The notes under the pieces were generated by a model. That model had not been told where the DNA came from. It made no database searches and worked only from the letters and a program-made list of their open reading frames with translations. Below are positions 35,515 to 37,069 of a DNA stretch of 64,000 nt, one piece after another. A program made the translations under genes and the position numbers. This DNA is from a virus. How positions within the stretch are numbered: the stretch's first letter is position 1; each line of letters starts with the position of its first letter. The stretch lies in IMG/VR virus record IMGVR_UViG_3300035146_000036; one strand, 5' to 3'.

Positions 35515-35724
35515 ATGAAGGGATATGGTTTGCCTAGGAATAATGATGTTGAACATCCAGATGTGGCTGATATATGTCTGTATGGATTGAATACATCATC
35601 TGGTGGTAAATGTTATCAAAAACCGGGGTCTAAAAGTAGGTCAAGGAGGATTTGGAAGAAGAAAGAGAGAAGAGAAGCAAGAAGATATTGCATGATTTTT
35701 TTTGAAGAAAGGATGGATTTATGA
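35515..35724 (+). CDS. hypothetical basic protein
   Basis: ORF track. Confidence 0.45.
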   Translation: MKGYGLPRNNDVEHPDVADICLYGLNTSSGGKCYQKPGSKSRSRRIWKKKERREARRYCMIFFEERMDL

Positions 35725-36239
35725 AAAAAGACGGATGGGATCGAGCTGAAGAAAGATGGAAGAGAACTGCAAGAAAAGGACCATGGTCATTATTTGCGAA
35801 AATTGTTGTTACTGTGCTTTTATTGAGTGTAATTTTTGGAGCAATTGGTATGGTTTGTGGGACAGCAAAGGAGGCTGTCCAGGTTGCAAGGGATGAATTT
35901 GGTCCAAAAGCACTATTGAAAAAGTATGAATGGTTCAAAGATATGGCTGCAACTTGTGATAAGTTGAGAGCAAATATCAAAGTAACAGAAACTAGAATTG
36001 GTCAAATGGAACAGGATTACAGTGGAGTTCCTAGAAATGAATGGGATAGAGTTGATAAACAAACGATGTCTCAGTGGAAGGCCGAGTTCGCAGGAATAAA
36101 AGGAGCGTATAACGATGCTGCTTCTCGTTATAATGCTCAAATGGCCAAGTTTAATTGGAGGTTTACAGAGATAGGGTCTTTGCCTGAAGGGGCAACAGAA
36201 CCACTTCCTAGGGAGTTTAAGCCGTATGTTGAGAAATAA
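35721..36239 (+). CDS. LemA-like single-pass membrane protein
   Basis: N-terminal TM IVVTVLLLSVIFGAIGMV; C-terminal AASRYNAQMAKFNWRF resembles the LemA C-terminal motif. Confidence 0.45.
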   Translation: MKKDGWDRAEERWKRTARKGPWSLFAKIVVTVLLLSVIFGAIGMVCGTAKEAVQVARDEFGPKALLKKYEWFKDMAATCDKLRANIKVTETRIGQMEQDYSGVPRNEWDRVDKQTMSQWKAEFAGIKGAYNDAASRYNAQMAKFNWRFTEIGSLPEGATEPLPREFKPYVEK

Positions 36240-36408
36240 TAGAAAGATCATAGAATCAAAAAGAGGTTTTACGCTTGTTGAATTGATGGTAGTTTTGATT
36301 ATATTGGGGATTATGTTTTCCATTTCCGTTTATGCAATAAGAAGTTTTTTGTCAGAGAATAGAAATATTGATGAGATTGTAGAAGATGAAAATGTAATAG
36401 AAATGTAG
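36226..36408 (+). CDS. type IV pilin / pseudopilin-like prepeptide (class III signal)
   Basis: KRG|FTLVELMVVLIILGI = prepilin peptidase cleavage/N-methylation motif (G-FTL[IV]E + hydrophobic helix); 60 aa. Confidence 0.6.
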   Translation: MLRNNRKIIESKRGFTLVELMVVLIILGIMFSISVYAIRSFLSENRNIDEIVEDENVIEM

Positions 36409-36448
36409 GTAATTATTTGGTTGTAAACCAAGAAAGGAATGATGAGTT

Positions 36449-37069
36449 ATGAAAAGGTTGTTTTTTGTTGGATTGTGTGTGATTTTTGTTGGATGTATAC
36501 CTGATTTTGGTGAAAAAGAAAATAAAGCGCCACGATCAAAATCTGGGGTAAAGGCGGCTAGAGTAAAAGTAAAAACGAATGAAAAAGGTTTGACGGTTGA
36601 ACAAGAAAATGTTGGTGCTCGTTTGAAAAATGATAGTGATGGAACATCAATAAAGCATTTGTATCTTGTTTCTGCATATACAGGAGATGTTCTTGTTTAT
36701 TCGACTGTGAAGGGGAAAGTAACATCTTCAGGTAAAAGATTGACACCATATACTGTTGCTGCTGGAGCTATTTCTGATGGTCATGGTAATATAAACCATT
36801 ATGGAATTCCTATTGTTGTTAATGGTACACAATATAGAACATCAGAGATTCTTCAAGATGATGGGACATATGGTCATTCAATGGAATATTTGTTTTGGCA
36901 TGATATAAATGGTGTTTTTAGAAAAACATATGTTACGGGTGGAATAATGCCAATTATTAGTGCTGAACCAATGGCTTTTCCAAAAGTTATTTTGAATGTG
37001 GATGATTCATGGTCGCCGAAAAAAAATAAGTCAGATGATGCATTATCTTCAAAAAAAAAATCTGAATAA
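36449..37069 (+). CDS. putative lipoprotein
   Basis: Signal peptide MKRLFFVGLCVIFVGC with lipobox-like VGC; secreted-type composition. Confidence 0.5.
   Translation: MKRLFFVGLCVIFVGCIPDFGEKENKAPRSKSGVKAARVKVKTNEKGLTVEQENVGARLKNDSDGTSIKHLYLVSAYTGDVLVYSTVKGKVTSSGKRLTPYTVAAGAISDGHGNINHYGIPIVVNGTQYRTSEILQDDGTYGHSMEYLFWHDINGVFRKTYVTGGIMPIISAEPMAFPKVILNVDDSWSPKKNKSDDALSSKKKSE

Follow-up and report, generated by a model that had tools for sequence, protein, structure and literature searches.

We analysed a 64,000-nucleotide stretch of viral DNA (IMG/VR record IMGVR_UViG_3300035146_000036; the whole stretch is referred to below as the window), in which three consecutive genes on the + strand, here called A, B and C, encode a single-pass membrane protein (A, 35721-36239, 172 amino acids (aa)), a prepilin-like pilin stub without a globular domain (B, 36226-36408, 60 aa) and a lipobox protein with a highly conserved, beta-rich domain (C, 36449-37069, 206 aa). 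Our preferred reading, to which we give a probability of about 0.5, is that B is a pilin-stub partner of an A-C envelope cassette and would act at the type IV filament machinery. Short pilin-like phage genes are already known; what appears to be new is the tie of such a gene to a membrane-protein/lipoprotein pair. This reading draws on the prepilin-type signal of B, its conservation among phage relatives, its fixed place between A and C, and the repeated joining of pilin-type helices to the C domain in other genomes.

A sequence-only reading of the window had proposed a class III (prepilin) signal in the open reading frame (ORF) at 36226-36408, and curated profiles bear this out. B matches Pfam N_methyl (PF07963) with 34.4 bits against a gathering cutoff of 21.2 (E 1.3e-8), and NCBIfam TIGR02532 (IV_pilin_GFxxxE) with 34.4 bits against a cutoff of 16.3. 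A regular expression for the prepilin motif, run over all six frames of the window, hits one site only, that of B, compared with 0.025 sites per mononucleotide shuffle. The peptide is laid out as MLRNNRKIIESKRG|FTLVELMVVLIILGIMFSISVYAI-RSFLSENRNIDEIVEDENVIEM, with KRG|FTLVE at the leader end and cut site, and carries the full prepilin series of a basic leader, Gly(-1), Phe(+1), Glu(+5) and then a hydrophobic helix of ~24 residues. Its leader (M1-G14, 36226-36267, + strand) has a net charge of +4 and ends at the predicted prepilin-peptidase cleavage glycine; the alpha1-N-like helix (F15-I38, 36268-36339, + strand), with E at +5, reaches a Kyte-Doolittle maximum of 2.72 over residues 20-38; and the predicted extracytoplasmic tail (R39-M60, 36340-36405, + strand) is acidic, with a net charge of -5, and ends ..EDENVIEM. 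Cleavage by a prepilin peptidase would be expected at G14, and would leave a mature peptide of 46 residues made up of the alpha1-N helix and a 22-residue acidic tail. The globular alpha-beta head by which a structural pilin or pseudopilin subunit is recognised is absent from B, and models of complete pilins and pseudopilins (GspG, GspH, ComGC and others) align with it at the N-terminus only, far below the required scores.

By the pattern of its conservation, B is a genuine gene under purifying selection and no chance ORF. It is intact in 15/15 close clusters, at 88-100% identity and on contigs of up to 172,915 base pairs (bp), and more distant phage relatives, located via gene A, carry related ORFs between A and C: two tandem 52-aa B-like copies in L006-L008 (A 84% identical), a 53-aa ORF in L009 (A 69%), a 74-aa ORF in L011 (A 67%), a 47-aa ORF in L013 (A 63%) and, in L014, a 60-aa copy of B that is 93% identical (A 97%). 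Small ORFs in the A-C gap of each of these loci (L006-L009, L011, L013 and L014) carry N_methyl. Across an alignment of 19 sequences, within which identity to B falls to 25-41% (the copies of L006-8, L009, L011 and L013), G14 (G-1), T16 (T+2) and E19 (E+5) are invariant, F15, L17 and L20 are conserved at 90% or more, and the acidic C-terminus is kept (from ..EDENVIEM to ..EEPVEM). The Nei-Gojobori ratio of non-synonymous to synonymous substitution rates (dN/dS) for B is 0.21-0.30 against L006, L009, L011 and L013, a rough estimate with dS near saturation; that for C is similar, at 0.25-0.31 against L006 and L011, the two comparisons with estimable dS. Between B and its nearest relative there are 4 non-synonymous and 0 synonymous changes. 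Because the ORF is intact and both the motif and the C-terminus are conserved, we take B to be probably functional today. Its family appears to be limited to one uncultivated T4-like clade: a B profile searched against 1.84 billion representative proteins recovered the family at full length just three times (as proteins of 60, 52 and 46 aa, of which the shortest, P0269, ends ADENVIEM), and the remaining matches are ordinary pilins aligned through their N-terminus.

The flanking genes have a far wider distribution. There are 202 homologs of A and 1163 of C, and we fetched 67 loci that hold both genes, from IMG/VR contigs, contigs of metagenome-assembled genomes (MAGs) and finished chromosomes. 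In loci outside the window's clade the two genes are adjacent or overlapping, mostly in the order A then C, with C before A in a subset made up of Melainabacteria/Obscuribacterales and jumbo phages, and ~60 other phage and bacterial A-C loci carry the pair without B. Gaps of 185-677 nucleotides (nt) between A and C are confined to the window's own clade, as are the small acidic-tailed membrane peptides found in that slot. Six diverged genomes that differ in the gene order around the locus carry B-family genes, and in all of them these genes lie between A and C and nowhere else. Among slot peptides in relatives, 8/10 end hydrophobic-E-hydrophobic and all ten have a net charge of -4 to -9 over their last 20 residues; the gaps of L011 and L012 hold small membrane peptides that lack the pilin motif and share the acidic tail. 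From this distribution, A and C form a tightly linked, almost obligate gene pair to which B is a lineage-specific add-on. The proposal that A, B and C form a module is thereby upheld, with A and C paired across those ~60 loci and B lying between them in every relative from the clade.

The A-C pair also occurs on chromosomes of Poribacteria, Melainabacteria/Obscuribacterales and Chroococcus, among ordinary cell genes, where its neighbours include a glycosyltransferase, an FtsH-like protease, an M48 peptidase, a pterin dehydratase and a sigma-70 factor, and where some loci hold two or three tandem copies of C. Three Melainabacteria/Obscuribacterales loci (L050, 1470-3471; L023, 1128-3498; L046, 1730-3501) show tandem C paralogs in the order C-C-A or C-C-C-A, and in L046 an FtsH-like AAA/M41 protease lies next downstream of the cassette. 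One phage relative, L012, has an HNH endonuclease ORF (3554-4285) directly 3' of A, whose C-terminus repeats the end of A (EPLPREFKPYV); this looks like a homing-endonuclease insertion with target duplication, and C was not found on the remaining piece of that contig. Several related contigs (L052/L066, on a 362,763-bp contig, L014, L020 and L025) were deposited as Paceibacterota, Nanoarchaeia or "archaeon" MAGs, with a Patescibacteria label as well. They are probably mis-binned phage; IMG/VR lists the 362,763-bp "Paceibacterota" contig as a viral genome too.

The protein encoded by C opens with MKRLFFVGLCVIFVGC; this signal peptide reads MKR-LFFVGLCVIFV-GC and includes the lipobox cysteine. 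The lipobox itself, F-V-G-C, lies at 36485-36496 (+ strand), with Cys16 as the predicted lipidated residue; the Cys column is aligned across homologs and at least 94 of the best 120 C homologs carry the pattern, in agreement with the earlier description of a signal-peptide/lipobox protein beside B. The domain that follows, of ~185 residues, retains 45-55% identity across hosts whose guanine-plus-cytosine (GC) content ranges from 33 to 64%, shows 30 invariant columns in the homolog alignment (A2) and can be summarised by the motif ..IKHLY..S..G....YSTVKGKVTSSGKRL.P ... VLQDDGTYG.S..YL.W.D. Among the best 120 homologs, 119/120 have no Pfam domain listed and one has N_methyl only, and a tblastn search with C against 50,697 GenBank phage records returned no homolog. 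The AlphaFold2 (AF2) model of C has a predicted local distance difference test (pLDDT) score of 64 and gave no informative fold match.

The C domain is not always attached to a lipobox. Six of the best 120 C homologs (P0145, P0168, P0179, P0212, P0218 and P0223) have a prepilin-type N-terminus fused to the C domain, and a protein of L026 is a seventh such fusion. In a neighbour-joining tree of the C domain the pilin-type variants fall in 7 separate places, so the switch between lipobox and prepilin signal is recurrent, and pilin-type C genes keep their partner A (L073, L074 and L026). P0168, P0179 and a protein of L051 (3486-4061) are hybrids in which a pilin-like helix (e.g. MRKAFTLVEVLVVIAILGILTALCMTGC) runs into a lipobox cysteine; going by their sequences, such N-termini resemble transitional forms between a class III signal and a lipoprotein signal. 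In P0212, the first 44 residues align with B through the segment after the helix (IRAFIKNPSAEEIV in P0212, IRSFLSENRNIDEIV in B; BLASTP E 2e-5, hhalign probability 95%). The Melainabacteria locus L050 has a 79-aa pilin-like ORF (KGFTLIELLV) that ends at the start of the first C and is followed by the order C-C-A. The C family thus offers natural lipobox/prepilin signal swaps on one domain, which are informative on how envelope proteins change their anchor. Since a pilin-type helix and the C domain are adjacent genes here and fusions elsewhere, the fusion/fission ("Rosetta stone") argument suggests that B and C work together and may interact.

An adjacent helix gene and beta-rich gene that also exist as fusions raise the prospect of a split pilin, in which B would be the helix and C the head of one subunit, as in Geobacter PilA-N/GSU1497, and the heterodimer would be polymerised by host machinery into a (pseudo)pilus. 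The layout agrees: a helix-only gene lies directly 5' of one for a beta-rich protein with a separate signal peptide, as at GSU1496/GSU1497 (PMC5174107), and fused "full-length" forms are known. We nevertheless consider this improbable. C and most of its homologs are lipobox proteins without a pilin partner, and a lipid anchor fits a filament poorly; the fused forms join helix to C domain by a short Pro/Ser-rich linker and have no continuous alpha1 helix; the weak C model (pLDDT 64) has no pilin-like match; and helix and tail of mature B amount to just 46 residues.

The same fusions, together with the history of C itself, bear on whether B is merely a relic. Between the window and L014 (C at 3729-4337), A is 97% and B 93% identical and C ~71%, and the signal peptide and the C-terminal tail of C are unchanged between these otherwise near-identical phages. 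The pattern points to replacement of the C allele or to diversifying selection on it, and C appears to be a recombination hot spot because A is 97% and C only ~71% identical in this comparison. B might then be what was left of the 5' part of an earlier pilin-type C gene when a lipobox-type C recombined into its place, and have no function, an account that the resemblance of the B tail to the linker of the pilin-type C protein P0212 and the 4 non-synonymous and 0 synonymous changes against the nearest relative would suit. As a description of B today we hold it to be very unlikely: the ORF is intact in every sampled relative and duplicated in L006-8, the motif residues and the C-terminus are kept at 25-41% overall identity, and dN/dS is 0.2-0.3 over the longer distances. 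As history, a remnant origin of B is quite plausible and compatible with a present-day function.

We now return to B as a working partner of the A-C cassette. By predicted topology the ectodomains of A, B and C all lie on the extracytoplasmic side. B would insert N-in/C-out into the host cytoplasmic membrane, where the host prepilin peptidase would probably cut it, and would remain in that membrane, at whose outer face this small pilin-like peptide would partner C and perhaps A. In type IV pilins, E+5 is needed for pilin-pilin and machinery contacts and not for membrane anchoring. Because every aligned member of the B family keeps E+5 although the remaining residues diverge, B may still contact host pilins or their assembly platform, through the retained E+5 and leader, and the cassette would thereby be recruited to type IV pili, type II secretion or competence, or would block their use, during infection. 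If B does link A and C to pilus or secretion machinery, this would be a new phage envelope tactic and would give a role to a large uncharacterised gene pair.

Alternatively, B might need neither A nor C. A stub of this kind could be dominant-negative, could cap the filament, or could compete as a substrate for the prepilin peptidase; type IV pili, competence pili or type II secretion of the host would be shut down, superinfection would be excluded, and the placement between A and C would be incidental. There is precedent for pilin-like phage products with such effects: FimU-like minor pilins (P-FimU) of prophages, in F10-like Pseudomonas phages, protect against pilus-tip-binding phages (Sztanko et al. 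2026, PMC12952977), and a 60-residue truncated PilA in six virulent Pseudomonas phages has been proposed to be incorporated into, or to inhibit, pili (PMC12952977). Stubs in virulent phages such as Aeh1p044 (28 aa) and PAP-JP ORF138 (59 aa) have no A or C nearby, and the invariant G-1 and E+5 of the B family would suit a decoy. However, B family members sit solely between A and C in six diverged genomes of differing gene order, the slot is common to non-pilin peptides with a like acidic tail, the C domain has recurrently acquired pilin fusions, and the strict B family is tiny, with three full-length representatives in 1.84 billion proteins. It is the strict A-C placement and the pilin-to-C fusions that lead us to favour a B that works with A and C over a free-standing decoy, which we regard as possible though somewhat unlikely.

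Several observations weigh against the partnership that we favour. Most A-C cassettes lack any pilin-like partner, which implies that C needs none. The slot peptides of L011/L012 that have no pilin motif share the acidic tail, and for that reason the functional part of the slot peptides may be the tail and not the pilin signal. Among the fused C variants, several have a residue other than G at -1 (R in P0212, H in P0145), and in such G-1-less fusions the pilin-like helix may do no more than anchor the protein. P0212 alone resembles B outside the generic pilin helix. The AF2 model of C is too weak for any docking site to be argued from it.

A bolder version of the partnership would treat A, B and C as an undescribed mobile envelope system of phages and several bacterial phyla, in which a pilin-type helix, whether fused or supplied as B, would plug C into host type IV filament machinery, and the acidic hydrophobic-E-hydrophobic end would be a docking signal for the invariant basic KGKVTSSGKRL loop of C or for a periplasmic PDZ-type protein. 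We offer this as a long shot. Were it true, phages would have a new means of hijacking or disabling pili, secretion or DNA uptake, and the set would be a phage example of a split pilin.

The N-terminus of the A protein is basic (net +5), and a single strongly hydrophobic stretch comes next, at residues 28-46. The protein is predicted to span the membrane once (N-in) and to fold its ectodomain into a long helical hairpin; its C-terminal motif, YNAQMAKFNWRF..LPEGATEPLPREFKPY, is conserved. It had been described as a LemA-like single-pass membrane protein. The LemA assignment finds no support in the sequence: A has no Pfam match at E<=1, and the LemA-type MamQ model reaches only E 0.22 and 11 bits (cutoff 250). 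LemA PF04011 gives weak matches in 2/43 A homologs (best E 0.0017), and a PDB sequence search with A returned no LemA structure. The earlier label arose from the architecture and a YN..YN..F-like motif. A may resemble the LemA family (PF04011, including MamQ) in its N-terminal anchor and all-helical domain of ~130 residues; it has a short YN..a..YN..m..F-like motif near its C-terminus, and one chromosomal A-C locus adjoins an M48 peptidase; it differs in that the window's A is without a Pfam match and those of its homologs are few and weak. Neither A nor C has a PHROG match, a defining Pfam domain or an NCBIfam family. Mimicry of PilN/PilO/PilP or GspC/L/M by A and C, considered on account of the shared architecture, found no support: the PilN match is non-significant (E 1.2) and C has no PilP or GspC match. 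No PADLOC defence-system model matched B or C, and the one match to A was at chance level.

A membrane anchor with a coiled coil next to a lipoprotein is also the generic layout of spanins, and A, B and C could in principle form a lysis module, with A as i-spanin, C as the o-spanin outer-membrane lipoprotein and B, with its charged tail, as a small holin-like membrane protein; like many spanin pairs, the genes lie side by side or overlap. This we rejected as extremely unlikely. The PHROGs that A and C fail to match include the spanin families, no endolysin or holin lies nearby (the neighbours are nucleic-acid enzymes), and the conserved ~185-residue domain of C, at 45-55% identity, is unlike the small, fast-evolving, proline-rich o-spanins. 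A-C pairs also occur among cell genes in chromosomes of Poribacteria, Melainabacteria and Chroococcus, sometimes with tandem C.

The 5' end of B overlaps the 3' end of A by 14 nt, and a Shine-Dalgarno-like AGGGAG, read from the sequence, lies within the 3' end of A at 36210-36215 (+ strand), 10 nt before the B start codon. A promoter/terminator scan gave chance-level counts and neither a promoter-like nor a terminator-like site between A, B and C; the three are probably co-transcribed. Downstream of C lie an RlaP-like nucleotidyltransferase (37105-38085; PF10127, PHROG 388) and, farther on, a DUF3268 zinc-finger protein (38218-38664) and an ORF with a borderline match to the SocA/Panacea antitoxin domain (39145-39630).

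The window is part of a large uncultivated T4-like phage. Its GC content is ~33% and its GC skew, at +0.27 to +0.56 per 2 kilobases (kb), is extreme and uniform; the + strand carries nearly all long ORFs and each gene identified in the window. The region at 50-59 kb encodes a terminase, a portal, a prohead protease and a gp23-like capsid protein whose identity to capsid proteins from cultured T4-like phages does not exceed 32%. Contigs related to the window phage reach 165-188 kb, and its full genome would be ~170 kb. When cultured relatives were sought, blastn with 7.5 kb gave one chance-level match only.

A perfect palindrome with the 12-nt core gCGAACTCGAGTTCGc recurs through the window, with 12 copies against 0.03 expected, at a spacing of ~3-7 kb (cores at 77, 7032, 12430, 18296, 23007, 29765, 35274, 38134, 42194, 49485, 54238 and 61340). 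The copies are mostly intergenic and immediately 5' of a ribosome-binding site, and the palindrome is probably specific to the phage, a regulatory element or an RNA stem-loop that delimits transcription or processing units. Two 16-nt copies of the form GCGAACTCGAGTTCGT/C, which have no strand and which we give for context only, lie upstream at 35272-35287 and downstream at 38132-38147, and flank a unit that holds A-B-C and the RlaP-like nucleotidyltransferase. Elsewhere in the window are a transfer-messenger RNA (tmRNA; Rfam RF00023, 110 bits; ARAGORN tag peptide VRHNDSQVWAEAA) at 45628-45978 and a transfer RNA (tRNA-Pro(UGG)) at 46677-46751, both of potential use in assigning a host. An 884-aa protein (30675-33329) has the shoulder domain of the major vault protein (PF11978, E 3.6e-24) and a weak Vault_3 repeat, and relative L009 encodes an 884-aa counterpart with an identical set of Pfam matches; a vault-protein-like gene in a phage is unusual.

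Compared with phage pilins already on record, B is less of an oddity than the sequence-only reading supposed when it called a phage-encoded pilin-like peptide unusual. That was an overstatement: eight PHROG families match B, with phage stubs among PHROGs 10597, 13280 and 11263, and tblastn finds a B-similar N-terminus in 155 GenBank phage records. They are joined by Aeh1p044 of Aeromonas phage Aeh1, which GenBank annotates as similar to the pilin N-terminus, and by the 60-residue PilA of Pseudomonas phages. Such stubs (truncated PilA, PAP-JP ORF138 with its charged tail, Aeh1 gp044) resemble B in their length of 28-70 residues, in combining leader, GFTL(I/V)E and helix, in being headless and in occurring in virulent phages. 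They differ from it in that the similarity is limited to the generic N-terminal motif and does not extend to the ..ENVIEM acidic end of B, and in that no A or C lies within ~1.5 kb at the two loci inspected; no phage record covers 80% or more of the query in a tblastn search with B. P-FimU likewise is phage-encoded, has a prepilin-type N-terminus and acts through the host type IV pilus, and it provides an experimentally supported precedent for the superinfection exclusion that had been suggested for B. P-FimU, however, is a complete minor pilin, head domain included, and is built into the pilus tip, whereas B is headless; B has no homology to host pilins beyond the shared N-terminal helix, and its tblastn match to genes of F10-like phages spans residues 13-43.

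The split pilin of Geobacter, PilA-N (GSU1496) and GSU1497, shares with the window a helix-only gene 5' of a beta-rich partner with its own signal peptide, and fused relatives in both cases point to fission or fusion (PMC5174107). The Geobacter system is cellular and not of phage origin, and its partner protein resembles a pilin head, a similarity that C, judged on its low-confidence model, does not show; moreover, C usually occurs without a pilin, and here a third partner, A, is always present.

Class III signal peptides also anchor proteins that form no pilus, among them archaeal sugar-binding proteins and planctomycete DUF1559 proteins. There, as in the signal swaps of the C family, a prepilin N-terminus replaces a lipid anchor, with the difference that the signal belongs to one polypeptide, whereas the window encodes it as a separate 60-residue product with a conserved tail.

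Against this background three features would seem to set B apart from the known stubs: its fixed site in a two-gene envelope cassette, a conserved acidic C-terminus that it has in common with non-pilin slot peptides, and the repeated lipobox/prepilin anchor swaps on the partner domain C. Stubs are common in virulent phages and none has a demonstrated function; with two fixed partners, a conserved tail and fusions to a partner domain, B offers a context in which one can be tested, and turns a member of an anonymous class of phage mini-pilins into part of a three-gene system with clear and cheap tests.

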